A stretch of 64,000 bases of DNA from Psammoneis japonica (GCA_008632985.1 QPGO01000100.1:114388-178387), one strand, 5' to 3'; numbered from the stretch's first letter, positions 18,022 through 60,555 are shown. A program made the numbers and translations. The notes: generated by a model not told the origin, from the sequence alone.

Positions 18022-18200
18022 CTGAAATGTCTTGAAGCCGGTTCGTACATCCACCATGGCGGGCGGACCTTGGTTCCATCAAATCAACTTTGCAGTCATG
18101 TTTGAAAGCGTACGGTAGACCTGCTGGTGCAGTTTTATTGTCACAACTACTTTGGCAAAATTCCTGGCTAATAGAGTGGTTTCTCTTGTGCAAAAACTGT

Positions 18201-25279: not shown

Positions 25280-25982
25280 CAAACCATCTTGCAATGCAGT
25301 GTGCCATTGTGGTTGACTTGCACAACTGTGGCAGGACCTGCATGACTGTCAGCCCTGCACTTGGATTTTTGTGTTTTTGTTTGACGATGAGTGCCATTTT
25401 TGTCCTCATTCACATGGACAAGCTTCTGATTTCTGTCCCACACAGGTTTCCACTTGTTGGCTTGATGTGTGATGTTCAACATCACATCTCTGTTGAGTGC
25501 CAGCTGTGCCAGGCTTGCACATGTGGCAGTGTGAGCAGCTGCATTTTGTGCACAGCAAATGTGGCTTTGGAGAGAGTGCGCCATGCGGAGCACAATCTTC
25601 ATCCAATTCCATGTCCTGGGCTGAAAATGATCACATGTCATGTTCCTAGTCACATGATGCATGCCCTCTGCTGCAGTGCTTGTCTGTGGGCAGCTTTTGC
25701 TTGTGGGTTTCTTTTGGGGGCCACCACAGTCATCTTGAATCATCTGACCAAGTTTGGTCACAAACTTGGCTCCTCTGTCAAAGATGGCCTTCATCAGCCA
25801 TGGATGTCTGCATGGCCAGGTTTGTTTGATGACATTTGCTGCAATGTTGGCACATTTCATGGATGCTTGGGCAATTTTGAACCATCTCCAGTCACTGGAT
25901 TGGCTGCAGTTGCTGCCCACAAGTGTGGCAGTGTCTTGCCCTTGGTTGTTGCATTTGACAACATGTTCTTCATCATGTTTGT

Positions 25983-26013
<31 letters not shown>

Positions 26014-27330
26014 TCTCCCTGGGATGGTTTTCTGCCACCTTCTTAGGAAGCTTTCCATGTTTAAGATTGTGCACATCATTGTCTTCTGACACAAGTCAAG
26101 CTCAGAGCACATGGAGCCTCGTGCCTTGTCAGCGGAGGTGTTGGGCACAATGGAAATTTCTGTGTGTGTCTCTCCAGGATGATGCAGCTGAAAACATAGC
26201 GCCACTCAGTCAGCTGCCTCTGCAATGACTCTGGGATGCAAATTTTGTCCTCACAGCATGTCAGCTGCCTGTTTTTGGTGTTTCTTTTCCACAGAAAGAC
26301 CGTGTGGGAGCAGCTGCACCAAACACAGGCATTTTGTGACAGGCACCCATCCTTCTGCTGCTCCAATTGAAGTTTCTTGAAGCCAGCTTGAGCCATCATG
26401 ATTTTCTTTACTTTGCTGGACTTTGCAAAGACCTCTTCATGAGTCTTCACTTCAGGTGTTTCTGCAACCATTGCACCACATTCGGAGTCCAAACACAGTG
26501 CAATGTTGAGATGAATGATGCAGTCAGCAAACAAGCTGTGATGGCCTTTGCAGTTTGTCTCAAGAACTCAAGCCTGCACCACTTTTCATGCACCAAGCAC
26601 CAGTGCATGGCACACTTGGCATTGAGTGCTGCTTTGCACATGAGGTTTTGTAGATCCACATGCAAAAGAATGATTTTTGATGACCAAGGAGGACAAACCT
26701 GAACTCTTTCAGTGTCCCACAATTGCAGGCAATTCTCACACCATTCTTGTTGCACAATTTGCTCATTTGTGAGTGCAAAAATTGTTCCTGTTTGCACCCA
26801 AAAAATGCATGAAATGAGAGCATTGGGTGCTGCAATTGAAGCATGAGGATGATGATGACTGCAGCTGCTGCGATGCTTTTTCTCAAAAATGCAGTGCATC
26901 AGCATCTCACTCTAACCTGATGCTGATCATGCAATGCACAGCAAGAGTGCAGCACCAATGACAGCATCATGCTGGCATGTCTTTGTTTTACAAAGTTGTG
27001 GCCAGTTGTTCTTGCCATGGTGAAGCACGGCAAAGTTCAGAAAAAAAAACATGAAAATCATGAGCCATTTGGGCAAATTTGATGGAAAAAAGCAGTGAGC
27101 AACCAGCCAAGCAACCTTGAGCATTCTGCTGCAGAAGGCAGTGGGTTTGTCATCATGAGACAACATTGCTGCTCTCAGTTGATGTTCAGATGCACCGGCA
27201 CTGTGAGCCAGCCAGCTCCAGGTGATGAGCATTGGCGCACAATCCAACAACCAAAAATTGAAGTGGAAATTGTCTCTTTCCACATGGGGTGTGTGCACAC
27301 CCACTTTTTCATTTTTGGAGCTTGCGCTCC
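25280..27330 (-). mobile_element. Ty3/Gypsy pol relic (RNase H - integrase)
   Basis: ASEHQLRAA..KPTAFCSRML (cf. DAS.YQLGAV..KP.AFYSRKL); KICIPESLQRQLTEW..HPGETHT; IFDRGAKF..MIQDDCG..KP..PQ; ASLAQL..RDVMLNI; GPATVVQVNHNGT. Confidence 0.75.
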
Positions 27331-33169: not shown

Positions 33170-33480
33170 AATGCAGGGTGCGCGCAGGCTTTGTCTTGCA
33201 ATCAACTTGTCCTTGGGTTTGCCACCTCAGCAGTGGGAAAAACAAAGCAAGTGCCTTCAATGTCTGCAGGAACACTCCCTTCTTGCTTCTTGGGGATGCA
33301 CAAATTTTGATGAGAATGTCTTTGATCCCTTTGAGCATTTTGCTTCAACGATGCTGAGAGGGCCAAGCTTTGCATGATTGCACTGTTCTTGATGTTGCAT
33401 GCTTGGGATTCCAGCAACATGATGGCTCCATTCACTCCCCCCATGACAGTCAAGTTGGTGTCATCAGCATGTTCATGACC
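33170..33480 (-). mobile_element. Possible Ty1/Copia RNase H relic
   Basis: LLESQACNIKN..LKQNA..RH and TKP resemble FLEAQGY.I..N..LE.NG..RH..TKP; heavily decayed. Confidence 0.4.
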
Positions 33481-33639
33481 CCCAAAACAGAGTCTTGAAA
33501 GTTTCAGAGAAAATGTTCAACACAACAACCCTGACTTCCCTTTTCTGGCTGGGAGCATGAAAAACTGTTGCAAAAGGTTGTGGAGAATGTCACTTCAACT
33601 GCTGGCAGTCTTGCAATGTGACAAAAAGAGAGTCTCAGT

Positions 33640-33945
33640 GGAGCTTTGTGGTGCTGTGATGCAACTCTGATGTGCTTTTAAACTGTGGAACAGGACAACC
33701 TTGCAGAGCTGCAAAAGGCAATTCTGGCACACCTCCAAACTCCAACAGGGTGCAGGAAAACCTCAGTGTAGCTGGTGATGCCAGCAGGCACAGAGCAAAA
33801 ACTCTGGTGCACTTTTAAACTGGGGAGCAGGGGACTCTTGCAGTGCCGCAATGCAGTTCTGACACATTTTTGAGCTGGGGAGTGGGAGAGAAGCTTGCCA
33901 TGTCACAGTGTGGCTCTGATGTGCACTTGAAACTGGGGCTGCAAA
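33640..33945. repeat. Degenerate short repeats
   Basis: Recurrent ctctgRtgYRcttttaaactg...ttgcag motif near 33665, 33802, 33858 and 33914. Confidence 0.55.
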
Positions 33946-35265
33946 ACTGTGGTCATCAGTGGTTCAGAAGAGCAGCCAGGCAATTCACCATCAGTGCCAT
34001 TGTTGAGAGAAGCTCTTGAAGAGACTTTTTAGATGGCATGGGCTCAGTCGCTCCATCGAGATGCATTTGGGCTTTTTTTGAAAATGGGGTCAGGAGGTTG
34101 CATGGAGGCCAAAACCAAATGAAGGATGAATTTTTTCAAATGACAATTGAGCTCTGCTGGGGGGCTGGCCTGAGCACCCCACCTGTGTTTTTTTCTGAAT
34201 GTTGATGTCCTCTTTTTTGCTGAAGGCAACCCAAATGTTTGCATCTGTGTGCGAGCACATGTTGTGTCCGCAGCAATCGATGCAGATGCATTGTTCATTT
34301 GTTTGCATGCAATGGCAGCCACAAATGCAACACACTCCATCAACAACAACAAACTTGCCATGACGCTTGCACACTTTGAGACAGAGCGCAGCCCATGCCG
34401 CGTGTGTGTGCCCCCACGTGTGCTTTGAAATGATCCTCCATTGCTCGCAGAGAGAAAACAGCAACTGCAAAATGTTCAATTTTTTGCCTGTCACTTTTCA
34501 GCCACATGGCTCAACAACAAGCCTGTTTCACTCTCATGTGTTGATTCTCCCATGCATGGGTTCACGAGATGTGATGCACTGGTGGTCGTCTTTGTCGCGG
34601 CTCTTGAAAATGTGACAACATGAAGAAAGCAGCAAGACACAGCAGAAGAGCTGCCATGGTGGTGGTTGAGGTGGTTTTTGCAGTTGCCAGCTGTGGTGTT
34701 CCTGTGGCAAATTTGTGCTGAAACTGAGTTGTGCTTGTCAAGTTGGTGTGGGTGGTGTTGTGCCTGCCACTTTTGGTGGCATCGGGGCCAGCAGCAAAAA
34801 AAAAAATCACGACCTGTGGCAACAAAAAAAGCACCACAACTGAGTCTCCTCTGAGCATGGTGGATGGATTGTTCTTGCACCACCCAGGAATCCACTGGCA
34901 TGGCACTAACCTGGGTGTTCAGGTCTCTGGTGGCACCTGCGCTGACGCTTGATGGTTTCCGTTCCAAAGGTGTTCATGACTGCCGCCAGTCGGTGTGTGA
35001 ACTCTGTGGTGTGCACGTTTGACTAACTGTGAGTGGCGCAGGAAAAGTTACACACGTCAGCATGCGAACTCACTCGTATGTACCCTTTAGAGTATGAATA
35101 TTTATTACTTATATGGGAAGTCAAAAGAAGAAGGTCGCGATCAACTTCAACAGATTTTGCGGAAGAACGCAAAGACACTCTTCAGATTTGCAGCGACCGG
35201 CAAAGAACAACACGAAAGATCGTTTTGTGATTGCTGCTCTATCATATACTGTTCCAACAATAACC

Positions 35266-40869: not shown

Positions 40870-43800
40870 ACTAATTTGTCGTCTTTTTTTTGATGGACTG
40901 CTCAGTGTCAGAAGCTCAAATCATCAAACCAAAGTGTGTGGGCAGCAACTGTGGTTGTGACCATGTTGAATAATCAACAATGTGGCCTTGGATGGAAGTT
41001 TGGGCAAGTGCAGCAGGTGTGGACCCTGAATCACAGAGCCTTGCAATGAGTGATGGCCCAGTGAGGCTGCATCATGGGGTTGCTGAGAAACCCAATGATT
41101 CGCTGGAGTGTTTTCAGCTGTGCGGCAGTTTGGCTGACTTTGACTCATGAACACATCATCATTTGGGTTGCTGACAATCCAATGATGCAACGGTGAGAAA
41201 AGTCACTTGGCAAAGCCGGGCCCTGGCTCTGACAAGGTCTGCCATTTTGAGACTGTCCAAAGATGTCCCTGTCACTGGTCAATTGAGAAGGTCGTTGCAA
41301 GCCTGCTTTTCTGCAGGGAGAGTCTTTGGTTGTCAACTGGCATGGAGGACAGACAATGTGAGATCAAGGTCAATGGTGTGCATTCATGTGTGTCATGTGG
41401 GCATCAAACTGTGCACCACTTTGATGACACCAACAAATTTGTCAAGTGGTGCTTCAGCAAAGAAAATGTAAGATCAGCATCACTTGGCAGCAACAAGTGT
41501 TGTTAACTCCAGCAGATGCTGAACAAGTTCAACGACACAGCCCATCACTTTTAGCTTCTGGGACTGCCAGAAAGGCAATCTCAGCAGCAAATTCTCAGTC
41601 AACCACTTTGCTTTGGTGGAACAGCAAATGTGCTGTGGTCCATCTCAGCATTTGTCAAGGCAGTTGATGAGAGTTGCAAGCCTGTCAAACACTGCCAAGG
41701 CAGCTGGGAATGTGGTCCAACCAAAGCTCCTTCTCTGGCTGTTGTCCAAGCATGGTGCAGATGCCCAAGTCTCTTCTCTGCCAGCACCCACAACCAAATG
41801 TCCAGCCACAGTTGGTGGCTTCAATCCAAGTGCCGAGCCAGCTGCCAAGCATTCTTGCAGTGTTGCATGTGCTGGGGGACAGGCACGGGTGAGCCTGTTG
41901 CCAGAGTTGCTGGGTGGAAGTGCAGCAATGCCACTTCAAACAGATTTTGCACTTTTTGCAGCAGGAGTTGTGCATGTCATGGCACCCAAAAAGCATGGGT
42001 CAAGGAGGCAGTGGATCCAACCACAGGTGCCAGCTGGGGTGCTTGCAAGCTCCCCTTTGACAGAGGCAGTCAATGAAGCTCTTTTGACCCAACAGGGAAG
42101 GGAGGTGAGCCAAGAAAGTTGTGGGTTGTCACACATCTTTGATTGACATGGGCATGTGCACATCAAATGAGCAGCAAAAGATTGACTTGAAAAAAACATT
42201 GTTTGATTGTCCAGCTCCTTTTGGCAAAGTGCTGGCACACACAATGTTTGACCCAGATGCAAGGAGACACACCCAGATGTGGCTTGCTGGAGTTGCTGTT
42301 CCTCCAGGGTTGCTGGCTCCACCACCTGTGATGTGCAGCTGTGAAGATTGATGCTGTGCTGCTGCGCATGACAACCCATGTCATGACAAGTGCACTGGGA
42401 GCCATGTTGGACTTCAAGGCACCAGCACAGGGGGTGTTGTGCTGCAACCAGGTGGTCCTGCAGAACAGGGTGGCCTTGGTGTCCCGTCATGAACTGCCCA
42501 CCACACAGTTGTGCAGTGCTGCATGCCAACAATGAAGGGGCAGCACAGGTGATGTAAAATGAGTCAGAGGTGCCCCATCTGTCAGAGTGGCAGGCCTGCT
42601 GCAGCTGCCACAACTGGTGTGGTTGACAGCTTCAGGCAAGTGCCACAAGGGACCTGGGTGTTGCAAAGTGTTGAGACATCAAATGCAGTGGTTGAGACAA
42701 TGAATTGAAGGCCAGAGGTGGGCGGTCCACACCCAACTCTTCCAGGTCATGCTGCATCACTGAACAACAAGCTTCTTTTCACCAATTGCAGCTGTTCAGG
42801 GGGGCACAAACATGATTGCTTGGGTTTTCTGTGCTGTGCTGCATGGCATCCTTCTGAAACTGTGGATCTTGAAAAAGACAGTGGGCATTGTGGGACAGTG
42901 CAAACTGGCGCACATGCATTGGAGAGGGAATTCAAGGCCAGCAAGTGTGGTGTCTTGACAAGGAGGTGTGGGCCAGCATGACAAAGACACTGTCTCTTCA
43001 TTTGGCTCATGGTGGTTGTGAATTGCAGAGTCTTTGTGAAGCCACACTTGCCCTGGGGTGCCTTGCAACAGAAGAACATGATGTCCTGGTGCAGGTGAAC
43101 AGGCAGGTGGCTCTTTCTCACCATGATGACCAGATCCTCTTCCAGCACAGGATGAGGCTTCTTTTTGTGCCACTGAGACAACTTGAGGAGAATGACTGTC
43201 CTGAAGAAGAGAAACAACAGAAGCAAGGCAGGTGCTGTTGAGGTTTGTGAGCTCAGACAAAACATCAAAGGCAAAGCTCAAATCATCATCATCTCACAGT
43301 CACCACAGTCATCATCATCACCATCCATCAAAGTTGGTGAAGGAGAACTCAAAGTTTTCTTGATCATGACAAACCTGGTCAATGCCACATGTCAAGGACT
43401 CATCAGAGTTGTTGTCAGACTCATCATCCAAAGAATGTTGCCATTGGAAGGCAAACTGCATGCAAGGCTCTTTTGGCTCCAAAGGAGAGCACACTTCAAG
43501 GAAACTGTCACCTGGGCATTCATTTGTTTTTTGTTGTCAGCAACCTTGTTGTCATCCATGAGGAAGGACAAGGCCATTGTTGACTCAAAGAGCAGCACAT
43601 CTGTGGGGCAATCATTGGGTGAGACATTGTCATTCACAGACTCATGGTTCTCAGCTGAGGTGATGAGGCTGCTCTCCAGGACAACAGTGGTGTCTTTGTG
43701 AGGAGGTGATGCCATTGATTCTCAGAAAAGTGGAGAGGTCAAGGGATGACAAAAGAGGGGAGCTCTTGATCAAATGTGAGATTGAGAAGCTGTCAGAAGC

Positions 43801-45260
43801 AAATGTTGCAAACAAGTGCTTGGGGTTCAGGCACCTGCAGTCCACCATTGTCAAAAAAGGCTGGGGAGTGGTTCCCATGACAGGGCAAGCAATGTCAGAG
43901 AGCAGACCTGCCAATGAGACAAAAAGAGCAACAGTCTTGAGCTGCTGGGGTTGCCAGGCAGCTGCACAAAAAGGTGCAGAAGAAAACCAAGCAACAGAGT
44001 CAAACAAGAGAAACAAGTTTGGACATGGGATGGGGAAGAATGCTGAGTGAAGCAAAGCCCTGCTTTGGTTTGGGACAAGAATGGGTTGCAACTTGGCGCC
44101 AAATCTACAGGCAATGCTGCAGCAAAAAAGATGTTGGTTGTGGTGTGCTGCAAACATGATTTTGAGCAAAGTGTTGTGCTCCATTTCAGGCCATTGTTGA
44201 GCACAATTTGCAATGCAATGTTTTGAATGGTGATGTGACCACACTTGCTCAATGTTGCAGCACCGTGCTTGACGCTTGCACTGCAGAAAAAGGGCTGTGT
44301 TGTGAGCCAAGCACACTCCAGCCACAGATGGGCTTCTTTTGGCATCTTGTGGTGCATCTGATGAGTTCCTTCTTGCACAGGTGGAACAGATGCAACTCTG
44401 CAACAGGTCCTTCCATTGACTCTTCTGTGGACACAAGTGTGGCGCTGAACATGATGGACCATGCTGCTGGGTGCTTCGAGCAAATGCAAAATGAAGCAGT
44501 GCCTGCTGTTTTTTCACCTGCTGCTGACCTGCCAAGCACCGCAGAAGCATGAAAATCACACAGCAACAGCAGTTGGTGCTCTCTCATTTGCTTTTCAGCT
44601 TGCTCATGACAGCAAGCAGACCTTTCATCTGCTCGATTGCTGAGGGGGGGGGGGGGGGCTGCACTGTCCGCACCCTGCACGGCATTGGCGCGGCTCTTTT
44701 CAGAGTGCTGGCTCTGACAGTGCTGGTGCACTGGGCTGCACACAAACCTGTTCCACCTGCCACCTCTCATTGGAGACCTCAAGCTGGTCAGCACCTGAAT
44801 TTGAGTGCACTTTGCAACAAAGTTGGCTGCTCTCTCTTTGATCTGTGTGGTGGATGTGGCACAAAAAATGATCAGAGGGTCAATTTTCCGACATGCTCAA
44901 AAACTCAAAATGGGCCCAACCTTCTAATTTTTGAGAATGCATTCACTGACAGCTCATTTCCTCATTGTTCTTGCCACACACACATGTGTGGAACTGTGGC
45001 CAAAATTCCATGTGCAATGTGTGTGCCCCCGGTCTTTTGTGCTGTTCCCAGCAACCAACACAGCTGGTCACTTGACACCTGACCACACCCAACCATTTCA
45101 AGCATGCTTTGATGATTCTGTCTGATGGTTTTAGAGTGTTGATCAACGTCAGGTGGCTTTCACAGCGTTCGACATGACAACAGAAGATGCAATGCTGGTT
45201 GTTGCACTTTTCTACAGCAGCATGGAGAATGACCGCAAAATGACTGTGACCCAAAAATCT
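40870..45260. other. TpA/CpG-depleted degenerate block 2
   Basis: Same composition as block 1; no family recognised with confidence. Confidence 0.92.
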
Positions 45261-46799: not shown

Positions 46800-48520
46800 C
46801 CAACACGAGTGGCGGGCCCAGGAGGATGCCAGGAGCAGTTGCCGCCATAGTGAGCCTTGGACTACCACATGTTTTGGCACGCCCATGCTGAATCATGTTG
46901 TGCTCTTTGGAAAACAGCAGAGCCCTGTCAGCTCGCAAAGATCACCCAACCAAAGCCTGCCCGGCTCACTGCCTTCATCCGGGAAGCAGCGTCTGGCATT
47001 GTCATTGATTCTGAGTTTGTTTTTGTGCTGAGGAGAGGCACCAACATTGCATGATGCCAAAGGTCAACCCCCTGGTTTTGCCTCAGAAGCACCTGAAGTG
47101 GAGTTGATGGGTCCCATGCCATGAGCCCCTGCATGACTCACAGGACCCTGCAGAGGGTGTGGATTTGCCAAAAAAAAACCTTGTGCAGAGCTTGTGCCAA
47201 GAGAGCTGCTCTTTCCAAGTGCTCTGGTGTGTCAAGTCACTCCTCAGTGGTTCTTGGCTGGGACATCTGGAGTTCCAAGTTGAGTTGGTGGGTTGCTGTC
47301 TGTCAATTCAAACCCTCTTCATGCTCCAGTTCACACCACATGGATGTGAGCCCCACAGCAAGGCTGCCCAACAAGCATTGAGTCCCAGATTGATCCACTT
47401 GGATGAGAGTCCCTCTGGGCCAAGATGGCTTCAGGCCCAAGAAGCAGCAGCTGGCATCACCACTGGTCCTGAGCTCACACTTGCACTGGCTGGGAGAGGC
47501 ACCAACAATGTTGCACAATGACAAAGGTCACTCTCCCTCAATTTTGTCTCACACAAGTGCCCAACAAAGTGGAGCTGGTGGGTCCTGTGCCATGAGCCCC
47601 TGTGCAACACACAGGACCCTGTGGAGGGCATGGAGCCAATTTGCGCACACTCTTGAGCAGGGTCATTTGCTCCCCCTCCCCCTCACACACACACCAGCTC
47701 CTCAGTTTGACAACACTCACCCTGAAACAGCATGTCTGGAGCAAGAATTTGCCATGATGAAGGAGAGTCTGTTCTTTGAGCAATGAAAGCAGTTCCTTCT
47801 TTGGCTTGAGGTCAGGAACTCTCAAGAAGAGGGGGCTTTGCCTCAACCACCCTTGGTCAGGTTTCTTGTGCAGATGACTGGTGAGCATTTGACCCCCAAA
47901 ACCACTTCCCCTTGCCATGGCAGGTGCGATGGGCACTGGCCCCAGAATGTTTGCTTCAAGTGCTGGGAGACACCTGAGGCATGAATGCAAGGAAATCGTC
48001 AGAGATGGCACAGATCAGGTTGGACCTGGCGTGCTGGTTTTAAAAATCTCAGTTTGCAAGCTGAGGGCAGGCAGACTGTCAAGTGTCCAAGAAAATTTGG
48101 CAAAAGCTTTTTAAAAGCACATGTTGGACATGGCTTGGTTTGGAAAGTGCCGGTGGAGGCTGCCACCCTTGTGCTCTGGCAGCACTTTTTGCACTGAAGC
48201 AGCAAGCAAAGAGATGCAAAAACTTTGCTGCAAACTTGTGCTTAGAAACACAAGGAGGACATCGTTGCCAGCAGTGGCATCACAGACACTGGCAGCAACC
48301 CAGCGCGACAAACACAAACACAGTGTGTGCTCATGCTGTGACCCAGAGCTGAATCTCCCTGTCATCAGCAGCGTGTTTCAGCAACAATGACAACAACTGC
48401 TGTGCTGCCCCACCTCAAGCATTTCCTTTCTTCTCCTTCCAATGCAACACACCACCACTTGCTCAACTCCCTCAATGGCAACACTGGGTGGACATGAGAC
48501 TGGAACTCATCCTTGTCCTT
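46800..48520. other. TpA/CpG-depleted degenerate block 3
   Basis: Same composition; internal ~47-bp direct repeat at 47111 and 47583. Confidence 0.9.
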
Positions 48521-48751: not shown

Positions 48752-49966
48752 ATGACGACATCTGATACATTGCTCCTGTTCTCTCTTCTGGTTGCATTTT
48801 TCCAGTCTTCAGCTTTTACTATTCCAACAAACAATAGACAGGCAAATTCCCATCGATCGTCGGCATTGAACGCCGAGAAACGACCGGTAGTTGTTGTGGG
48901 GAGAGTGGATCATGTTGGCGGTGAACCACTTCAAGTGGTTGGGAGCGCATCGGCAGCCATGGTGGGAGCCGCTTTGGCCTTGAGCGCACGTGACTTGTTA
49001 AAGGGCGATTTGAGACTTCCTACGCAAGAGACGCCACCTCCAGCTCAACCAATAACAATGCTAACATCGATTGATCAGAACGCACCTGCTGCAATTGAAG
49101 ATTCGCTGTATGAATACTTGGAAGAGACTTTGTGGGATTCTCCTGCTCTCCTTGTTCGACGAACACAAAACAAGGAATATCCTGTAATTGCCGATTATGA
49201 AAGCTGTCTCAATCAACGATTCGATAATCAGGCCTGGAACAACCGACCAATTTTACATGTTGTCATGGAAGGAGGAACTGCTGCTGAAGCCCTATTAGAT
49301 CAACAGCTTCGGGATGATGTTTTCTTTTTGGGTATAGAGCCAGTTGTCCCCTTTGAGAATAACGGGGTCGTTTCACCAGAAATGGCGCAACAATGTGGCT
49401 CGATATTGCAGCGCATCCTTGACTTTTACCAGACGGACCAGGAGGCCGCAGCCGTATCCTTGGATTCACCCTTACTTCTCAGCATGTTGCAAGCAAATTG
49501 TTTGCCAAAGTCGTCGACAAACAGGGACTCTTTTGCGGTGCATCCGAGTGGCTCACAGAGAGGGGAGAGTTCTACCGGCCTCCTCGTCGAGTATTTGTAC
49601 GACTATGATAATGCCTTTGGAGGAACGGACCCCCTGTCGTGTCCAACCAACGAGTTTAGTATTCCGGTGCCCTATGAACCATCAAGCAAGAATACTCCCA
49701 GGATGTTGTCAAAGGCGGGAAGCAATGCCGCCGCTGCTGCGTATACAGTTTTGCGAGGTCATGGAATGGAGTCTGTCTTGTCCATGTGTATTGCAGCAAG
49801 TATTGAAGCGTTATTTTGGGAGATGCAGCAACATTCCTCTTTTGAATGTCCTCCTTATACATGGAGTAGCATTGAGAGAGTTGCTACTCTCAGTGAGCAA
49901 GTGCGAGATTACGTACGGGAAGAACAAGTAGTACGGCAAAGGTACATTGAATTCGGCTATAAATAA
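48752..49966 (+). CDS. Hypothetical protein with bipartite plastid-type presequence
   Basis: 404-aa ORF; signal peptide ending SSA-FTIP (ASAFAP-like). Confidence 0.75.
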   Translation: MTTSDTLLLFSLLVAFFQSSAFTIPTNNRQANSHRSSALNAEKRPVVVVGRVDHVGGEPLQVVGSASAAMVGAALALSARDLLKGDLRLPTQETPPPAQPITMLTSIDQNAPAAIEDSLYEYLEETLWDSPALLVRRTQNKEYPVIADYESCLNQRFDNQAWNNRPILHVVMEGGTAAEALLDQQLRDDVFFLGIEPVVPFENNGVVSPEMAQQCGSILQRILDFYQTDQEAAAVSLDSPLLLSMLQANCLPKSSTNRDSFAVHPSGSQRGESSTGLLVEYLYDYDNAFGGTDPLSCPTNEFSIPVPYEPSSKNTPRMLSKAGSNAAAAAYTVLRGHGMESVLSMCIAASIEALFWEMQQHSSFECPPYTWSSIERVATLSEQVRDYVREEQVVRQRYIEFGYK

Positions 49967-50142
49967 CACCTTATTCTTTTGCAATCGTGTGTTGTGATAT
50001 TGTTTGTGCTTTTATTGATTGACTACATGATCACTTCTACAAGGAGAAAACTCCGCGGGGTGATGCCCTCACACCTTTCTTTCACTTCGTTTGGATAATC
50101 AAGCCAAGAACCGTCGAGGAACCAAGCGCTTCTTATTCGCCA

Positions 50143-51126
50143 TCAAACCGACACTTGCGTCGACAAATAGTTGGCCAACTCTTGGTGCCCAGTTGGATTG
50201 GGATGCCAAGCGTCAGTGATTGAACTTGTCTCAAATTCCCACATCCAGCCATCGGGATTCTGAACAAAAAGTTTCGGGTCGATCTCGTGTCCAGCAAAGA
50301 GGCTCATTGTGTCCACAGACTGAAAGGTCGGACCATTAGGGATCGCGTTGGCAGTGGCGACAGCTCGTTCAAAGGTCGCCTTCTGCTCGTCTGCAAAGGT
50401 ACGGTATTCCTTGCGCATATTGATGGCAATGAAAAAGCCAAACAACCAGTCGTTTTTGTCTAGCACAAGGTGCGGGTAGTTGACCATGGCCACTGTGGCT
50501 TGGCTGGACAATTTCGTCGCAAGCTCAGAGAACATGGCATCAAGTTGGTCCTCAACAGCGGGTAAGGTGGCAGTGGCTTCCGCTAGCTCCTTTCTGCAAT
50601 TGCGTGCATTTCGTGTGATGAGGCAGGCTCTGGTCATCTCGGGAAACCCAGCATCATTGCCGCCAACCGAAATGAGCACCAGGTCGGTGGACGCGTCGAC
50701 AGCCTCGATCTGTTTCTTCAAGTACCGAGTGCACAACAAGCCTTCTTTCTCAAACTCTTCATCTTGGTTTTCCGGAGGACAAGAACCAAGAAATGTGTTC
50801 TTCTCTCTGCGATTGGTGATGTCCTCGACTCGTCCATTGTAACAAGCTCGATTGACAAAAGAGTCAGCAGCAGCAAGCGAGTCGGCATGCTGGCTAGCCC
50901 AACCAGTAGGGCTCCGAGCACAGCCACTCGGCCCATCGTAATTTTCCTTTCCAAACTCGTCGCGCGCTCCGGTTCCAGAGGCAAATGAATCGCCAAGTGC
51001 CACCACATTGAGGGCGACCGAGACATGAGGACACAAGAACAACATCGGCATTAACAGTCCCACAGACAGCGATGCGGCTTTCACTGCTTTGATTGCTGAT
51101 GAGACGGTGTTCATAGAGTCTGACAT
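50143..51126 (-). CDS. Secreted SGNH/GDSL hydrolase (SEST-like), copy A
   Basis: ALGDSFASG, NRACYNG, SVGGNDAGF, DAWHPNPTGH; signal peptide. Confidence 0.9.
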   Translation of the reverse strand: MSDSMNTVSSAIKAVKAASLSVGLLMPMLFLCPHVSVALNVVALGDSFASGTGARDEFGKENYDGPSGCARSPTGWASQHADSLAAADSFVNRACYNGRVEDITNRREKNTFLGSCPPENQDEEFEKEGLLCTRYLKKQIEAVDASTDLVLISVGGNDAGFPEMTRACLITRNARNCRKELAEATATLPAVEDQLDAMFSELATKLSSQATVAMVNYPHLVLDKNDWLFGFFIAINMRKEYRTFADEQKATFERAVATANAIPNGPTFQSVDTMSLFAGHEIDPKLFVQNPDGWMWEFETSSITDAWHPNPTGHQELANYLSTQVSV

Positions 51127-51329
51127 GTTGTCAACCGAACAATCTGTGTTTATGTGGCACAATGGGTGCCAATCAATGCAACAAAAGTGGGTTCGATGAA
51201 GCAGCCTCCACCCATGCGGTGATTTATTCCAAAACGTGACGTTGCGTTCCTCACAGTCCGTTGCTTGCGCTTGTTTTTTAGTTTTACTTGCTCGGGTGTG
51301 CACCGTTTAGGCCCTGTAGGATGACGTGG

Positions 51330-54315
51330 CAAGATGTCAAGTTTGTGTGCATTCAGTGTCGCACTTTTCTCCACGCAAAAAGCATGGGTTGACCATGGGA
51401 TTCCCGACGAAGAAGAGCATTCTGTTGGGCTATCTAATTTGCTTCTTATCTTACTTTTCTACATCAGAAGGCATTGGATCAATGAAGCTGACCAACATGG
51501 GGATTTGCAACCTGGTTTTTTCTGCTTTTGGAAAAGTGTCCAGCACCTCTTGCTGACGGGACATGTCATTGCAAAATCAAGGAAGCACAACCCAATCTAG
51601 AGAGTCTTGGGTTCAAGCCTTGGGCAGAAAAGATGAGAGCAATCTTGACAACTTTGACTCAAATCAGAGTGGCAGCAGAGGCGCTGCACATCAAAATCAA
51701 GTCCACACTGCACGGCCAGTTGACTGACATGGGGAAATGGAGGACAGTGTTCCCAAAAGAAGACACGTTGTTGTGCACTGTGTTGCTGATCCATCCCAGC
51801 AGGTTGAGAAACCACTCAAAGAGGCAGGTTCTTTTCAAAGGCTTCTGAAAGTTTTTGGGGTGTGGCTGCACTCACATGACAAACGTCATCGGCGCGAATT
51901 GAGAGGAGAGACATGCAGAGCTGGGGGCTGAAATGCAGGTGGAGCCCCCATGCACTCAGCTGTTTAATCTTCAGAGAGCTGCTGCTGCAAGAAATGAAGG
52001 CAATCCACAATCTGGCAAAACTTGTTGGGGCAGTCCAGAGGCCAAAAAACTGTTTCCTGGTGATTCCAGAGAAGTGAGGAAAATGTGGCGGCAGCTCTGG
52101 AGTGATGCACATCATCAACAGACCACAACAAGTTGGCAAGAAGACACATGAAAGACAGACCAAGGTCATCAATCAATGTGGCAGGGACCAAATCTCTGCA
52201 GCCCTCATGATGCGAACCTTGTGTCACAAAGAAATCTTGCTTTGGGTGGCATTGGCCCAGGCAACAGGCACGCAAGGATGTTGGCAGGAGAGAGGAGGGA
52301 GCTTTGGCAGGCAGAGAAGGAAGGGCAGGAGTCAGAAAAGTTGGAGAGGACAGTCCAAGGTGGCTTTGGGCATGGAAAAAAGCCAAAGAAGAAAGAATGG
52401 AAATGATGGCCAGTGGTCAAAGGGGCAAAGTGTTGGCAAAGGCCATTGAGAGAGGCCAAGGGTTTCAACAATGGCACGGGTGGGATTGTGGGTGTGTGGT
52501 TGGAGAGGGAGCCATTGTGCATTTTGGGGCACACAGAGGCATGGTCATTGAAGGGGTCAAAGGAAGAGTGCAGCTGCAAGGGCAGGGCAAGTGCCAGAGG
52601 TCTGGAGGGTGGCAAGGTGACAGAGCTTGTGAAGGAAAAGAAAGGCAATTTGGAGGGGGAAAAGGCAGCTGCATGGGTGGAAGGAGTGGAGACAGAGCAG
52701 GCTGGCAAGCTGGGGAAAGAGCAGAAGGGGGGTTTTGAAGTTGGGGTGTTGAAGGATGAAAAGGAGAGCAGTCTGATGTGGGGTGTTGCACAGGTGGGCA
52801 CATTGGGCAAGGCCTCAGAGGTGCATTGTGTGGCCAGAAAGAGCAGTGGGAAGCAAGGAGTCAAAGATGGGAGAGCAAAAGAGCCAAAAGACAACATGGA
52901 GGCAGAGGCAAGAGCGGGAGTCAGACAAAGAGGCAAGATGAGCAGAGTGGCTGGGTGGCAAAGAGAAGAGTTGGTCACAAGTGGGGGACACCTCCATGTT
53001 TGGCAAATCAGGAGCAGGGCGGCCAGGAAAGGGAGATGACAAGAAGGAGGAGGGAGGCAACAGCAATGGCTGAGACATCAGCCAAAGCAGCTGATGCCAC
53101 ACCAAGGGAAGCAGAAGGGAGAAGGGCAACAAAAAGAGCTGCAGCAGGGAAGGGGTGGGGTGGGGGGTCACTGTGAGGTGGGAGAGGAAGTGGAGAGAGT
53201 GTGCCCAATGACAGAATCAGCAAAGGGAGAGGCCCTGTGAAAGAGGTTTTGGGTGGGTGTCGGGGGACAGGAGGTTGCAGCAGGCACCAGCAGCAGAAAA
53301 AAAGCAACAGATGCTGGGCCAGAGGGGGTGGAGCAATTGCAGGAGAGTGTGCTTTGGGTTTGCAGGCACCAAGGGCAGCAGAGGTCTTGGGCAAAGAGGT
53401 GGAGGAGGCAGCCTTGGACAAAAGAAAGTTCATGGAAGCAAGTTGCTGACCAAGAATGTGGGCACCAACAGCAAATTCAAGATGTGTGTCAACAGTTGTT
53501 GACAAGACAAGGCATTCTTGGAGAAGGTGGCATCATCATCTGGAGAGAGGGAGTGAGGGGAGTCAGAGATGGAAGCGAAGAGATTTTTGTTTTAAAAAAA
53601 ATTGAGGACAATGCCAAGGGGAGGGCCTGGGTGGGTCAGATGCTCAAGGAACCAAGGCATGACAAAGTGGGGCAGAAAGGCATGGTGTGTTTGTGCACTG
53701 AAGCAATCCAGAGATTGCTGTTTTGTTGAGCTGTTGACCCAGCCCGCAAAGAGGCAGGCCTCAAATGAATCAAAACACTTTGTGAAAAAATGTGAGTGTG
53801 GAGCTTCAATCTTCTTGAGCCACAATGCTCCCCACTCTCCAGGAGCTTTTTGTTGTGTTGCTTGGCATGAAAAATGTGCTTGTTGAGCAACAAACATGGG
53901 CACACATGATTCATGAGAGACGGCGCCACTCAACCGCTCGCAAAACAACGAGTGAGCTCCCCACCAGAATTGCCGCAAGCAAACAAGCTTTTGATTTTGC
54001 CAGCTTTTGCAGCATTGATTCACAATTGTTTTTGGGACAAACACAGAATGTGCATGATCATTGAGATGCCACTCTGCTGGCAAGCAGAAGCTCCCCAGCT
54101 GCTGTGAGCAAGCAACCTTTTGCTTTGGCCAGCTTTGCAATGTTGATCTGCAGCTGTTTCTGTGCCTCCCACTGGGAGAAGACGTTTCTCAACACCAGCA
54201 CCAGCAGCACAGTTTCACCTGGGTGTGCCATGGCCATTGGCAAGAGGGGTTTTTTTTGGGGGAAAAGACTGACGATGACACAACATGCAGTCCCAGCTGT
54301 TGGAGATGGGACTTC
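51330..54315. other. TpA/CpG-depleted spacer X1
   Basis: Converted composition with a purine-rich middle; family not recognised. Confidence 0.9.
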
Positions 54316-54560
54316 AATGCCGCTGCTGCTGCCGCGCACACAGTTTTGCGCGATCATGGAATGGAGTCTGTCTTGTCCATGTGCATTGCTGCAAGTGTTG
54401 AAGCATCATTTTAGGAGATGCAGCAACATTCCTCTTTTGAATGTCCGCCCCATAAATGGAGTAGCATTGAAAGAGTTGCTGCTCTCAGTGAGCAAGTTCG
54501 AGATTACGCACGGGAAGAACAAGTGGTGCGACAAAGGTGCATTGAATTAATTCGGCTGTG
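54316..54560 (+). pseudogene. 3' fragment of the 48752-49966 gene, TA-converted
   Basis: Aligns to 49724-49960 with Y>H/C changes and a TAG stop. Confidence 0.9.
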
Positions 54561-54726
54561 TTACCTTGCTCTGTTGCAATCATGTGCCGCACTTGCTGTT
54601 TTGGTGCTTTTGTTGAATGTGATTACTTCCACAAGGAGAAAACTCCGCGGGGTCGCGCCCCGCACCCTCCTTTTACCTCGTTTGGAATCAAGCCAAGAAG
54701 GGAACCAAGTTCTTCTTTATTCGCTG

Positions 54727-55715
54727 TCAAACAGACAACTGCGTCGACAAATAGTTTGCCAGCTCTCGGTGCCCTGTCGGGTTGGGATGCAAAGCGTTGG
54801 TGATTGGGCTTGTCTCAAATTCCCAGATCCAGCGATCGGGATTCTTAACAAATGGTTTCGGGTCAGTCTCGTGTCCAGCAAAGAGGCTCATTGTGTCCAC
54901 AAACTGAAAGGTGGGACCATTGGGGATCGCATTGGCAGTGGCGACAGCTCGTTCAAAGGTCGCCTTCTGCTTGTCTGCAAAGGTGCGGCATTCCTTGCGC
55001 ACATTGATGGCAATGAAAAAGCCAAACAACCAGTCGTTTTTGTCTGGCACAAGGTGCGGGTGGTTGACCATGGCCACTGTGGCTTGGCTGGACAATTTCG
55101 TCGCAAGCTCAGAGAACATGGCATCAAGTTGGTCCTCAACAGCGGGTAAGGTGGCAGTGGCTTCCGCTAGCTCCTTTCTGCAATTGCGTGCATTTCGTGT
55201 AATGAGGCAGGCTCTGGTCATCTCGGGAAACCCAGCATCATTGCCGCCAACCGAAATGAGCACCAGGTCGGTGGACGCATCGACAGCCTCGATCTGTTTC
55301 TTCAAGCACCGAGTGCACAACAAGCCTTCTTTCTCAAACTCTTCATCTTGGTTTTCCGGAGGACAAGAACCAAGAAATGTGTTCTTCTCTCTGCGATTGG
55401 TGATGTCCTCGACTCGTCCATTGCAACAAGCTCGATTGACAAAAGAGTCAGCAGCAGCAAGCGAGTCGGCATGCTGGCTAGCCCAACCAGTGCCGCAGGG
55501 CTCCGAGCACAGCCACTCGGCCCATCGTAATTTTCCTTTCCAAACTCGTCGCGCGCTCCGGTTCCAGAGGCAAATGAATCGCCAAGTGCCACCACATTGA
55601 GGGCGACCGAGACATGAGGACACAAGAACAACATCGGCATTAACAGTCCCACAGACAGCGATGCGGCTTTCACTGCTTTGATTGCTGATGAGACGGTGTT
55701 CATAGAGTCTGACAT
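54727..55715 (-). pseudogene. SGNH hydrolase copy B (chimera of A and C, frameshifted, TA-converted)
   Basis: 5-bp insertion within 55491-55497; CYNG>CCNG, RYL>RCL, NYP>NHP, EYR>ECR relative to copy A. Confidence 0.92.
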
Positions 55716-55929
55716 GTTGTCAACCGAACAATCTGTGTTTGTGTGGCACAATGGGTGCCAATCAACATGACAAAAGCAGGTTCGATGAAGCAGCCTCCAC
55801 CCATGCGGTGATTTATTCCAAAACGTGACGTTGCGTTCCTCACAGTCCGTTGCTTGCCTGCACGCTTGTTTTTTTGTTTTTCAGTTTTACTTGCTCGGGT
55901 GTGCACCGTTTAGGCCCTGTAGGATGACG

Positions 55930-58909
55930 TGGCAAGATGTCAAGTTTGTGTGCATTCAGTGTCGCACTTTTCTCCACGCAAAAAGCATGGGTTGACCATG
56001 GGATTCCCGACGAAGAAGAGCATTCTGTTGGGCCATCTAATTTGCTTCTTGTCTTACTTTTCTACATCAGAAGGCATTGGATCAATGAAGCTGACCAACG
56101 TGGGGATTTGCAACCTGGTTTTTTCTGCTTTTGATGAAGTGTCCAGGGCCTCTTGCTGATGGGACATGTCATTGCAAAATCAAGGAAGCACAACCCAATC
56201 TAGAGAGTCTTGGGTTCAAGCCTTGGGCAGAAAAGATGAGAGCAATCTTGACAACTTTGACTCAAATCAGAGTGGCAGCAGAGGCGCTGCACATCAAAAT
56301 CAAGTCCACACTGCACGGCCAGTTGACTGACATGGGGAAATGGAGGACAGTGTTCCCAAAAGAAGACACGTTGTTGTGCACTGTGTTGCTGATCCATCCC
56401 AGCAGGTTGAGAAACCACTCAAAGAGGCAGGTTCTTTTCAAAGGCTTCTGAAAGTTTTTGGGGTGTGGCTGCACTCACATTGCAAACGTCGTCGGCGCGA
56501 GTTGAGAGGAGAGATGCAGAGCTGGGGGCTGAAATGCAGGTGGAGCCCCCATGCACTCAGCTGTTTAATCTTCAGAGAGCTGCTGCTGCAAGAAATGAAG
56601 GCAATCCACAATCTGGCAAAACTTGTTGGGGCAGTCCAGAGGCCAAAAAACTGTTTCCTGGTGATTCCAGAGAAGTGAGGAAAATGTGGCGGCAGCTCTG
56701 GAGTGATGCACATCATCAACAGACCACAACAAGTTGGCAAGAAGACACATGAAAGACAGACCAAGGTCATCAATCAATGTGGCAGGGACCAAATCTCTGC
56801 AGCCCTCATGATGCGAACCTTGTGTCACAAAGAAATCTTGCTTTGGGCGGCATTGGCCCAGGCAACAGGCACGCAAGGATGTTGGCAGGAGAGAGGAGGG
56901 AGCTTTGGCAGGCAGAGAAGGAAGGGCAGGAGTCAGAAAAGTTGGAGAGGACAGTCCAAGGTGGCTTTGGGCATGGAAAAAAGCCAAAGAAGAAAGAATG
57001 GAAATGATGGCCAGTGGTCAAAGGGGCAAAGTGTTGGCAAAGGCCATTGAGGGAGGCCAAGGGTTTCAACAATGGCACGGGTGGGATTGTGGGTGTGTGG
57101 CTGGAGAGGGAGCCATTGTGCATTTTGGGGCACACAGAGGCGTGGTCATTGAAGGGGTCAAAGGAAGAGTGCAGCTGCAAGGGCAGGGCAAGTGCCAGAG
57201 GTCTGGAGGGTGGCAAGGGTGACAGAGCTTGTGAAGGAAAAGAAAGGCAATTTGGAGGGGGAAAAGGCAGCTGCATGGGTGGAAGGAGTGGAGACAGAGC
57301 AGGCTGGCAAGCTGGGGAAAGAGCAGAAGGGGGGTTTTGAAGTTGGGATGTTGAAGGATGAAAAGGAGAGCAGTCTGATGTGGGGTGTTGCACAGGTGGG
57401 CACATTGGGCAAGGCCTCAGAGGTGCACTGTGTGGCCAGAAAGAGCAGTGGGAAGCAAGGAGTCAAAGATGGGAGAGCAAAAGAGCCAAAAGACAACATG
57501 GAGGCAGAGGCAAGAGTGGGAGTCAGACAAAGAGGCAAGATGAGCAGAGTGGCTGGGTGGCAAAGAGAAGAGTTGGTCACAAGTGGGGGACACCTCCATG
57601 TTTGGCAAATCAGGAGCAGGGCGGCCAGGAAAGGGAGATGACAAGAAGGAGGAGGGAGGCAACAGCAATGGCTGAGACATCAGCCAAAGCAGCTGGTGCC
57701 ACACCAAGGGAAGCAGAAGGGAGAAGGGCAACAAAAAGAGCTGCAGCAGGGAAGGGGTGGGGTGGGGGGTCATTGTGAGGTGGGAGAGGAAGTGGAGAGA
57801 GTGTGCCCAATGACAGAATCAGCAAAGGGAGAGGCCCTGTGAAAGAGGTTTTGGGTGGGTGTCGGGGGACAGGAGGTTGCAGCAGGCACCAGCAGCAGAA
57901 AGAAAGCAACAGATGCTGGGCCAGAGGGGGTGGAGCAATTGCAGGAGAGTGTGCTTTGGGTTTGCAGGCACCAAGGGCAGCAGATGGGCAAAGAGGTGGA
58001 GGAGGCAGCCTTGGACAAAAGGAAGTTCATGGAAGCAAGTTGCTGACCAAGAATGTGGGTGCCAACAGCAAACCCAAGATGTGTGTCAACAGTTGTTGAC
58101 AAGACAAGGCATTCTTGGAGAAGGTGGCATCATCATCTGGAGAGAGGGAGTGAGGGGAGTCAGAGATGGAAGTGAAGAGATTTTTGTTTTAAAAAAATTT
58201 GAGGACAATGCCAAGGGGAGGGCCTGGGTGGGTCAGATGCTCAAGGAACCAAGGCATGACAAAGTGGGGCAGAAAGGCATGGTGTGTTTGTGCACTGAAG
58301 CAATCCAGAGATTGCTGTTTTGTTGAGCTGTTGACCCAGCCCGCAAAGAGGCAGGCCTCAAATGAATCAAAACACTTTGTGAAAAAATGTGAGTGTGGAG
58401 CTTCAATCTTCTTGAGCCACAATGCTCCCCACTCTCCAGGAGCTTTTTGTTGTGTTGCTTGGCATGAAAAATGTGCTTGTTGAGCAACAAACATGGGCGC
58501 ACATGATTCATGAGAGACGGCACCACTCAACCGCTCGCAAAACAACGAGCGAGCTCCCCACCAGAATTGCCGCAAGCAAACAAGCTTTTGATTTTGCCAG
58601 CTTTTGCAGCATTGATTCACAATTGTTTTTGGGACAAACACAGAATGTGCATGATCATTGAGATGCCACTCTGCTGGCAAGCAGAAGCTCCCCAGCTGCT
58701 GTGAGCAAGCAACCTTTTGCTTTGGCCAGCTTTGCAATGTTGATCTGCAGCTGTTTCTGTGCCTCCCACTGGGAGAAGACGTTTCTCAACACCAGCACCA
58801 GCAGCACAGTTTCACCTGGGTGTGCCATGGCCATTGGCAAGAGGGTTTTTTTTGGGGAAAAGACTGACGACGACACAACATGCAGTCCCAGCTGTTGGAG
58901 ATGGGACTT
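55930..58909. other. TpA/CpG-depleted spacer X2 (duplicate of X1)
   Basis: Near-identical to 51330-54315. Confidence 0.92.
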
Positions 58910-59165
58910 CAATGCCGCTGCTGCTGCCGCGCACACAGTTTTGCGCGGTCATGGAATGGAGTCTGTCTTGTCCATGTGTATTGCTGCAAGTGTTGAAGCG
59001 TTATTTTGGGAGATGCAGCAACATTCCTCTTTTGAATGTCCGCCCTATAAATGGAGTAGCATTGAAAGAGTTGCTACTCTCAGTGAACAAGTGCGAGATT
59101 ACGTAGGGCCCTACGGGAAGAACAAGTAGTACGACAAAGGTACATTGAATTAATTCGGCTATATT
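58910..59165 (+). pseudogene. 3' fragment of the 48752-49966 gene
   Basis: Aligns to 49724-49960; 8-bp insertion within 59104-59113. Confidence 0.9.
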
Positions 59166-59329
59166 ACCTTACTCTGTTGCAATCATGTACCGCACTTGCT
59201 GTTTTGGTGCTTTTATTGAATATGATTACTTCCACAAGGAGAAAACTCCGCGGGGTCGCGCCCCGCACCCTCCTTTTACCTCGTTTGGAATCAAGCCAAG
59301 AAGGGAACCAAGTTCTTCTTTATTCGCTG

Positions 59330-60310
59330 TCAAACAGACAACTGCGTCGACAAATAGTTTGCCAGCTCTCGGTGCCCAGTCGGGTTGGGATGCAAAGCGT
59401 CGGTAATTGGGCTTGTCTCAAATTCCCAGATCCAGCGATCGGGATTCTTAACAAATGGTTTCGGGTCAGTCTCGTGTCCAGCAAAGAGGCTCATTGTGTC
59501 CACGAACTGAAAGGTGGGACCATTGGGGATCGCATTGGCAGTGGCGACGGCTCGTTCAAAGGCCGCCTTCTGCTCGTCTTCAAAGGCGCGGTATTCCTTG
59601 GGCATGTTGATGCCAATAAAAAAGCCAAACAACCAGTAGTTTTTGTCTTGCACTTGGTGCGGGTAGTGGACCATGGCCACTCTGGCTTGGCTGGACAGTC
59701 TCGTCGCAAGCTCAGAAAACATGGCATCAAGTTGGTCCTCGACAGCGGGTAAGGTGGCGGTGGCTTCCACTAGCTCATTTCTACATTTGTGCGCATTCCG
59801 TGTAATGAGGCAGGCGGTGGATATCTCGACAAACCCGGCATCAATGCCGCCAACCGAAATGAGCACCAAGTCGGTAGACGCGTCAACAGCCTCAATCTGT
59901 TTCTTCAAGTACCGAGTGCAGAACAGGTCTTCTTTCTCAAACTCTTCATCTTGATTGTCAGGAGGACAAGAACCAAGAAACTTGTTCTTCGCTCTGCGAT
60001 TGGTAATGTCCTTGACTCGTCCATTGGAACAAGCTCGATTGACAAAAGAGTCAGCAGCAAGCGATTCGGCATACTGGCTAGCCCAACCAGTAGGGCTCCT
60101 AGAACAGCCACTCGGCCCATCGTAATTTTCCTTGCCAAACTCGTCGCGCGCTCCGGTTCCAGAGGCAAATGAATCGCCAAGTACCACCACATTGAGAGCT
60201 TCCGAGACTTGAACACAGAATAACAATAACAGCAGCATCAATAGCCCCACAGACAGCGATGCGGCTTTCATAGTTTTGATTGGCGAGACTGTGAACATAG
60301 AGTCTGACAT
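59330..60310 (-). CDS. Secreted SGNH/GDSL hydrolase, copy C
   Basis: Intact ORF; GDSFASG and DALHPNPTGH; block III reads GGID rather than GGND. Confidence 0.88.
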   Translation of the reverse strand: MSDSMFTVSPIKTMKAASLSVGLLMLLLLLFCVQVSEALNVVVLGDSFASGTGARDEFGKENYDGPSGCSRSPTGWASQYAESLAADSFVNRACSNGRVKDITNRRAKNKFLGSCPPDNQDEEFEKEDLFCTRYLKKQIEAVDASTDLVLISVGGIDAGFVEISTACLITRNAHKCRNELVEATATLPAVEDQLDAMFSELATRLSSQARVAMVHYPHQVQDKNYWLFGFFIGINMPKEYRAFEDEQKAAFERAVATANAIPNGPTFQFVDTMSLFAGHETDPKPFVKNPDRWIWEFETSPITDALHPNPTGHRELANYLSTQLSV

Positions 60311-60555
60311 ACTGCCAACCGAACACACTGTGTGAGTGAGACAATGGGTGCCAATCAAAAACAAAAACAGGTGCGGGGGTGAATAAGCGCCGCGCCCTCG
60401 TGCTTCCAACTTCCAAGCGCTCCAAGTTTTTTGCGTGGTTGACAGATAACTCTGAAGAAACAGATCCGGCCGGCCGGCCGGCCGGGCGGGCGGCTTCGGG
60501 CGGACGACGTCGAGCGAGCGACCACATCTTCTACTCTCTAGCTCTACAGTAGCTA

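Follow-up and report, generated by a model that had tools for sequence, protein, structure and literature searches.

Why has one of three related gene copies lost most of its TA dinucleotides (TpA) while the copies on both sides have kept theirs? The question is raised by a 64,000-nt stretch of DNA from Psammoneis japonica (GCA_008632985.1 QPGO01000100.1:114388-178387), referred to as the window; all positions are given within it. Self-comparison of the window identified a 2.3-copy tandem duplication at 49723-60372, with a 4.6-kb unit and the order A-X-B-X-C (unit 1, 49723-54314; unit 2, 54315-58909; partial unit 3, 58910-60372). The segments 49723-55781 and 54315-60372 are 94.6% identical. 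A (49723-51176) and C (58910-60372) are the parental copies, and X is a spacer. Each parental copy carries the 3′ end of a gene designated gene 1 and an intact SGNH/GDSL hydrolase gene (Pfam PF00657/PF13472) encoded on the minus strand (A: 50143-51126, 327 aa; C: 59330-60310, 326 aa). The identity of A and C is 86.6% (49723-51176 versus 58910-60358). B (54315-55781) is a hybrid whose SGNH frame is broken and whose TpA sites are hypermutated: 23 of 40 parental TpA were replaced by TpG or CpA.

The hybrid structure of B, with a left part resembling C and a right part resembling A, was proposed in an initial annotation of this DNA and was recovered in the three-way alignment. A-only differences end at B position 54931 and C-only differences begin at 54946; the crossover is therefore placed between about 54932 and 54945. 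The right part of B is 98% identical to A. This mosaic suggests that the old paralogs A and C gave rise to B by unequal crossing-over. The SGNH frame of B is disrupted by a private 5-bp insertion at 55492-55496.

Mutation spectrum of copy B

Substitutions were tabulated by sequence context in the A/B/C alignment. The strict three-way count includes 25 B-private sites and 2 three-state sites, i.e. 27 substitutions. The MAFFT alignment of A is faulty around 49954-49975; visual inspection shows that a 4-bp duplication and a 4-bp deletion bring back CGGCTATA in A facing CGGCTGTG in B.

TA>TG/CA changes account for 19 of the 27 substitutions, which confirms the TpA enrichment announced for B-specific changes. 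The remaining eight comprise transitions at CpG (four), other G>A changes (two) and transversions (two). All strict B-private A:T>G:C transitions (19/19) are located at TpA. They affect 19 of 80 TpA bases, versus 0 of 638 A/T bases located elsewhere (Fisher P = 1e-19); for 19 of 27 changes falling on 80 TpA bases among 1440 aligned bases, the binomial P is about 2e-18. When B is compared with the relevant parental copy only, TA>TG/CA changes represent 23 of 34 differences; four of these 23 sites (54586, 54802, 54985 and 55741) are not polarisable from the three-way alignment. Among adenines outside TpA, 1 of 309 differs, and this change is private to C. The TA>TG/CA changes of B are found on both strands, as first described. 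Most CpG are intact, also as described: 4-5 of 78 were lost in B and about none in A and C.

The mutated tract extends from 54384 to 56051 and spans the crossover. Its densest part (54384-54619) includes 14 TA>TG/CA sites: 54384, 54407, 54451, 54481, 54509, 54525, 54528, 54539, 54558, 54560, 54568, 54586, 54612 and 54619. The same stretch contains one CG>CA change (54405) and three other differences (54413, 54492, 54498). The recount between C and B thus gives exactly the 14 sites counted in the initial annotation, together with its single CG>CA and its "about three" other changes. Between 54509 and 54619, 10 of 13 parental TpA were changed. A second cluster of five TA>TG/CA sites (54984-55062) is located just right of the crossover. 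The seven changes previously listed for the A-derived part were all found (54985, 54989, 55002, 55046, 55062, 55307, 55424). The right-hand tail of the tract (55740-56051) includes four sites, 55741, 55882, 56034 and 56051, where unit 2 has TG or CA and unit 1 has TA.

Direction of the changes

A and C both have TA at all strictly polarised sites. Some of these sites belong to tyrosine codons. Codons 369 and 398 of gene 1 are TAT or TAC in A and C and CAT or TGC in B; tyrosine is found at both positions in distant homologues (27-38% identity). At Tyr217 of the SGNH hydrolase, A and C have TAC and B has CAC; tyrosine is invariant at this position in all 9 sequences aligned. The best bacterial homologue (P0001) also has Tyr135. 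TA is considered ancestral, as stated initially, because two independent copies, about 87% identical, keep it and because the outgroup proteins have tyrosine. Within the dense cluster, many CA and TG are retained in C, and nearly all TA are gone from B; the saturation is therefore on the side of TA loss.

The opposite direction would imply that the CA and TG of B are ancestral and that C>T changes at CpA, like those of repeat-induced point mutation (RIP), struck both A and C. One position could be read in this way: at 54984-54985, C has CG, B has TG, A has TA and a contig of an independent read set (run X1, described below) has CA, which resembles a stepwise decay to TA. However, the same hits would be needed in two independent copies at at least 17 sites, tyrosine is the outgroup state at four sites, and the genes of A and C are intact while that of B is broken. 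Moreover, the many CA and TG left in C indicate no saturation in that direction, and the neighbouring deserts described below are TA-free instead of TA-rich. This reversed, RIP-like polarity is hardly credible and was rejected on the agreement of A and C, the outgroup tyrosines and the saturation of B for TA loss.

The four states of the single TpA at 54984-54985 could result either from independent hits on different strands or from stepwise CpG decay.

Restriction to copy B

Since the origin of B, unambiguous TpA changes amount to one TA>TG in A and none in C. The change in A, at 50617 (TG in A, TA in B and C), is the sole unambiguous TA>TG found outside B in the triplet. The 19 TA>TG/CA changes of B versus one in A give a sign test P = 4e-5. 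The gene 1 fragment and intergenic DNA of C (58910-59330) have lost no TpA, and the corresponding left part of B has lost 14. This segment of C was equal to the left part of B at the birth of B, and its left flank is also alike. In the right-hand flank of the hydrolase gene, four TpA (55741-56051) were lost from unit 2, and unit 1 has lost none of the TpA of unit 2; in particular, no TpA was lost from the unit 1 flank at 51127-51500.

The background divergence is given by the two spacers: X of unit 1 and X of unit 2 differ by 45 substitutions in 3406 columns. The non-TpA changes of B (8 in 1440 bp) are consistent with this background. Because the spacers differ so little, the TpA loss of B is far above background; TpA sites in B changed at roughly 100 times the rate of other sites.

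A genome-wide neutral bias against TpA, visible in B because it is an unconstrained pseudogene, would agree with the broken frame of B and with the match between its eight non-TpA changes and the neutral divergence of X. It is nevertheless extremely unlikely, since no TpA was lost from equally old non-coding DNA in C (58910-59330) and in unit 1 (51127-51500), where the B side lost 14 and 4, respectively, and since the TpA ratio (rho) is as high as 0.98 in normal intergenic DNA of the window.

TpA and CpG deserts

B is located between two regions that almost lack TpA and CpG. Deserts are defined as 250-bp windows with at most 4 TA+CG; they total 21,000 of the 64,000 bp, about a third of the window. 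Over 19,250 bp of desert, rho(TpA) is 0.03 (34 sites), rho(CpG) 0.07 (83 sites), rho(CpA) 1.90 and rho(TpG) 1.78. In the gene islands, the values are 0.57, 0.95, 1.22 and 1.19, respectively. According to the rho profile, the surplus of CA+TG in the deserts roughly equals the deficit of TA+CG. The largest desert extends from 20751 to 34750; for example, 26251-34250 contains 21 TA, 26 CG, 931 CA and 937 TG. The dinucleotide profile delimits further deserts at 1-1000, 41001-45000, 47001-48500 (beside the island of gene 1 and copy A), 51501-54250 and 56501-58500. Deserts are single-copy within the window. Spacer X (unit 1: 51177-54314; unit 2: 55782-58909) is purine-rich and becomes desert from about 51501 and about 56501, respectively. 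The 3.4 kb of X in unit 1 include 16 TpA, almost all of them located at the left end.

The contexts in which TpA was changed in B and lost from the deserts were compared. The fractions mutated in B are 5/5 for GTAC, 10/14 for NTAT, 4/6 for CTAC/GTAG, 3/9 for GTAA/TTAC, 1/3 for CTAG and 0/3 for TTAA. The survival of the same contexts in deserts relative to normal DNA, in the same order, is 0, 0, 0.04, 0.05, 0.07 and 0.40 (Spearman -0.97 between the two series). Residual desert TpA are found in TTA/TAA in 26 of 34 cases, versus 529 of 1359 in normal DNA (P = 2e-5). B and the deserts have matching context preferences.

TpA seems to be lost faster than CpG, in half-converted stretches (e.g. 24251-25250, with 4 TA and 24 CG) as in B. 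Between the two spacers (51497-54276 versus 56100-58871), 11 of the 45 differences are CpG<->TpG/CpA (7 lost in unit 1 and 4 in unit 2); the remaining desert CpG are therefore still decaying in both units.

The deserts are rich in long open reading frames (ORFs) on both strands (e.g. 25213-26205 and 43654-44583) that belong to no Pfam family. The missing TA leaves TGA as the sole stop codon, which explains their number; they are probably not genes. A Pfam scan of 137 desert ORFs detected no viral or transposon domain, although heavily edited sequence may escape such detection. Besides two sub-threshold hits, the scan returned only a decayed Methyltransf_7 domain (PF03492) at 23548-24639 on the minus strand. 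This remnant of an S-adenosylmethionine-dependent carboxyl methyltransferase is spread across two ORFs, in a TA-poor stretch that retains some CpG, and it is possibly a second gene undergoing conversion. Its alignment with PDB sequences for Tyr>His/Cys changes was too divergent for a site-by-site reading.

Proposed explanation

The explanation retained here, which is probably correct as a whole, is that a regional process converting TpA into TpG or CpA acts on the hybrid copy B and that the same process formed the deserts. Two old SGNH-hydrolase paralogs, A and C, with X between them, would have recombined unequally and given the A-X-B-X-C arrangement. After its birth, the small island carrying B would have been targeted by a process acting on DNA, and its neighbours A and C would have been spared. 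The process would change A to G on either strand, favour contexts such as GTAC and NTAT and leave TTAA, with a slower CpG>TpG/CpA decay alongside. Taken to completion, it would have produced the surrounding DNA that lacks TpA and CpG.

Targeting could be directed by the chromatin state of the neighbourhood. A silent or heterochromatic state of the deserts may have spread over the 2.2-kb B island wedged between two of them; B's loss of CpG, compared with practically none in A and C, agrees with this view. As read from the sequence pattern, an enzyme that modifies bases would be involved: it would either deaminate adenine to inosine or alter the T of TpA in a mutagenic way. 5-Formyluracil, for example, pairs with G. 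Both routes have the same outcome in duplex DNA and are indistinguishable from sequence. The reports of 5-hydroxymethyluracil returned by a literature search concern dinoflagellates only.

The process would be of one kind with the TpA-only hypermutation that Mettrop et al. (bioRxiv 10.64898/2026.01.13.699255, April 2026) described in Bigelowiella natans, where mutation-accumulation lines revealed it in viral DNA that is integrated and silent. A more speculative proposal, which is tentative and rather doubtful, is that of an ancient DNA-editing system common to stramenopiles and rhizarians that attacks TpA and CpG, the self-complementary pyrimidine-purine steps, in silenced chromatin. It could rely on one dual-specificity activity or on two coupled ones (ADAT2-like A/C DNA deaminase, oxidase of 5-methylpyrimidines). 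In P. japonica, its targets would extend beyond foreign DNA: entire domains would be reduced to deserts, and a redundant host copy could be silenced quickly on an evolutionary scale, in bursts that differ between clones.

Read support and alternative explanations

The assembled sequence of B was compared with one independent read set carrying the same organism label (run X1, Logan contigs); contigs indicate presence, not absence. No RNA run containing this sequence was listed, and runs X2 and X3 yielded no matching contig. A 229-nt contig of depth 33 is an exact match to B over 54421-54649, and C-type letters are found alongside at depth 33-44. This contig bears 12 TA>TG/CA sites, some in the CA state and others in the TG state. 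Since the two states occur together in a single contig, miscalling of modified bases on one read strand is excluded.

Several observations weigh against the proposed explanation. X1 contains 63% of the sampled 31-mers of 54316-56100. It shows parental letters only at nine TA sites (54407, 54802, 54985, 54989, 55002, 55307, 55424, 56034 and 56051) and at six other positions (54405, 54413, 54775, 54798, 54972 and 55279), and the 5-bp insertion of B is missing from its contigs, including at the corresponding place. Part of B therefore has no support beyond the assembly. The changes are also modestly clustered by strand: the longest same-strand run includes 11 A>G changes on the + strand, among the mutated sites 54525-54802 (longest-run test P = 0.008; runs test P = 0.08). 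Finally, the targets differ from the viral ones of B. natans: B was formed from two SGNH genes of the host, and no viral or transposon domain was detected among the 137 desert ORFs.

X1 is uninformative for 54384, 55046, 55062, 55741 and 55882. At three positions it has letters present in none of A, B and C (54984 C, 55011 T, 55286 A). Over 54916-55061, an X1 contig has seven differences (six listed); this count suggests a C-then-A junction that still has TA. B thus differs between samples or is heterogeneous. On balance, the left cluster can be taken as genuine. The remaining changes either are younger and specific to a clone or have the assembly as their sole support at present. The initial annotation had named a mis-assembled haplotype as the way in which its claim could fail: the left cluster escapes this objection, being found in X1, and the right-hand changes were not confirmed by X1.

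An artefact of assembly or sequencing (a chimera of haplotypes, errors left in unpolished long reads or wrong calls at modified bases) would account for the many B-private letters absent from X1, for the missing insertion and for the 63% of sampled words. It would not account for the exact 229-nt contig with its 12 mixed CA/TG sites. In addition, the sites unsupported by X1 keep the strict TpA rule, unlike random consensus errors, and the 54916-55061 contig is apparently C-like then A-like. An artefact is thus very unlikely to be the origin of the pattern.

Gene conversion is an unlikely alternative, with somewhat better grounds. B would have received its private alleles patch by patch from a paralog or a divergent allele, unseen so far, located elsewhere in the diploid genome. 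The density of changes is indeed uneven: 19 differences are found in the 236 bp of 54384-54619 versus 3 in the following 312 bp (P = 3e-5), a cluster beside nearly unchanged DNA. The X1 variants found in none of A, B and C indicate that more alleles exist. However, a donor differing almost solely at TpA would itself need the same process, so that the event would be moved, not removed. Self-comparison found no third parental-type copy that could be the donor within the 64-kb window, and the context rule of B equals that of the deserts.

The third alternative is error-prone repair synthesis by a DNA polymerase eta-like enzyme during the recombination that formed B. Polymerase eta has the error motif WA>WG, of which TA>TG is the hottest form. 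The tract straddles the crossover, as would be expected, and the 11-change run on one strand also agrees with repair synthesis. This polymerase should nevertheless also produce AA>AG, yet the single differing adenine among 309 outside TpA is C-private; the change of 10 of 13 TpA at 54509-54619 is far beyond a single-pass error rate. An X1 version of B with the left cluster and without the right-hand changes suggests more than one episode, and deserts of up to 14 kb are not accounted for. Such repair is quite improbable as the source of the changes, and the regional TpA process remains the preferred explanation.

Genes of the locus and host lineage

Gene 1 (48752-49966, + strand) is an intact ORF of 404 aa to which no Pfam family corresponds. 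From 49723 onwards, its 3′ end forms the left edge of the duplicated unit and is found at the left edge of every unit. The window is intron-poor, and its gene content includes a pentatricopeptide repeat protein, a kinase, a G protein-coupled receptor and lipases. The SnRK1-type kinase is closest to diatom and bolidophyte proteins (69-70% identity), followed by those of oomycetes (66%). Protein searches with this kinase and with genes of the locus returned no near-identical protein. The kinase matches point to an ochrophyte host, probably a diatom, and not to Bigelowiella.

The nearest named relatives of the SGNH hydrolase are actinobacterial (about 30% identity), and the search returned no eukaryotic homologue; the gene may have been gained by horizontal transfer. 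Relatives were also looked for in metagenome contigs: 105 pattern matches were obtained, of which none was confirmed, and an exact 48-nt search gave none.

Two other features of the window were recorded. Spacer X is purine-rich on the + strand at 52001-54000 and 56001-58000 (GC skew +0.35, AT skew +0.28). Normal DNA at 15919-18028 contains nested inverted repeats: the arms 16453-16730 and 17224-17501 are 97% identical, and the outer parts 84-86%. Four of the eight differences between the 97% identical arms are TA<->TG/CA, in a direction that is not polarisable.

Comparison with known systems

RIP in fungi is a C>T process that turns CpA/TpG into TpA and mutates all copies of a duplication; it is associated with cytosine methyltransferases of the RID/Dim-2 type. 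Like RIP, the process found here is regional, depends on a dinucleotide, produces transitions only, ruins a duplicated gene copy and builds blocks of odd composition. Unlike RIP, it destroys TpA by A:T>G:C changes, i.e. in the opposite direction and on the other base. Moreover, one of three copies was hit (A, 98% identical to the right part of B, has one TA>TG), and the host is not a fungus.

CpG decay through deamination of 5-methylcytosine resembles part of the pattern: four B-private changes, 11 of the 45 differences between spacers and the desert rho(CpG) of 0.07. It is unable to yield TA>TG/CA and covers the CpG part only. Polymerase eta mutagenesis at WA shares the hot motif TA>TG; it differs by the lack of AA>AG here, by the near-saturated changes and by the deserts, which it leaves unexplained.

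A-to-I deaminases of the ADAR/ADAT type favour a 5′ U and act on RNA. The changes of B resemble their products, being clustered A>G with T on the 5′ side, a preference that is also discussed in the B. natans preprint. They differ in being fixed in genomic DNA, on both strands and across 14-kb deserts, and in being present in a genomic assembly and in contigs of X1, a run listed as 'DNA?'.

Literature searches on TpA loss in diatoms or stramenopiles returned no report. The closest known case is that of B. natans, compared here from the available part of its preprint. In mutation-accumulation lines of this chlorarachniophyte, the mutation rate of two integrated viral regions is about 1000-fold that of the remaining genome; 230 of 231 mutations turn A into G or T into C, always within TpA, and yield TpG or CpA according to the strand (10.64898/2026.01.13.699255). 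The process is active in some lines only, and the larger region is single-copy and transcriptionally silent. The genome contains 124 clusters of windows that are TpA-poor and rich in CpA and TpG, and an ADAT2-like DNA adenine deaminase was proposed.

The likenesses concern the spectrum, the confinement and the long-term trace. The A:T>G:C changes of B are nearly pure and all at TpA (19/19). They are confined to a region, far above its neighbours (23 of 40 TpA lost in B, 1 in A and 0 in C). The deserts are TpA-poor and rich in CpA and TpG, as are the B. natans clusters. The target in B. natans, a nucleocytoplasmic large DNA virus region, is single-copy; the process is therefore not triggered by repeats, which fits the hits found here in B only. 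Activity in some lines finds a possible parallel in the difference of B between two data sets, one of which (X1) is a single run of contigs.

Besides the nature of the targets, the differences are as follows. The host is an ochrophyte and not a chlorarachniophyte. The end state is more extreme, with a rho(TpA) of 0.03 versus cluster cut-offs of at most 0.43 in B. natans. CpG loss accompanies TpA loss here, and the word CpG is not found in the available text of the preprint. A flanking-base rule is seen here, and the main text of the preprint, as far as available, contains no such context analysis.

If the process is the same in kind, its consequences could be broad. TpA-only hypermutation had so far been reported once, in a chlorarachniophyte, according to the sources available; a second, independent case makes it a candidate for a widespread eukaryotic process of genome editing or defence. 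The reach of the process is considerable, a third of the window being nearly without TA or CG. DNA without TA, and thus without TAA and TAG stops, generates long false ORFs, and molecular dating and the ages of paralogs would be distorted. A natural enzyme that turns A:T into G:C in DNA would also interest the builders of base editors. The A/B/C triplet provides a natural, internally polarised record on a host gene and adds the flanking-base preference and the coupling with CpG loss. The process is thus precedented: it is a variant of the B. natans process in a second lineage, with several added features.

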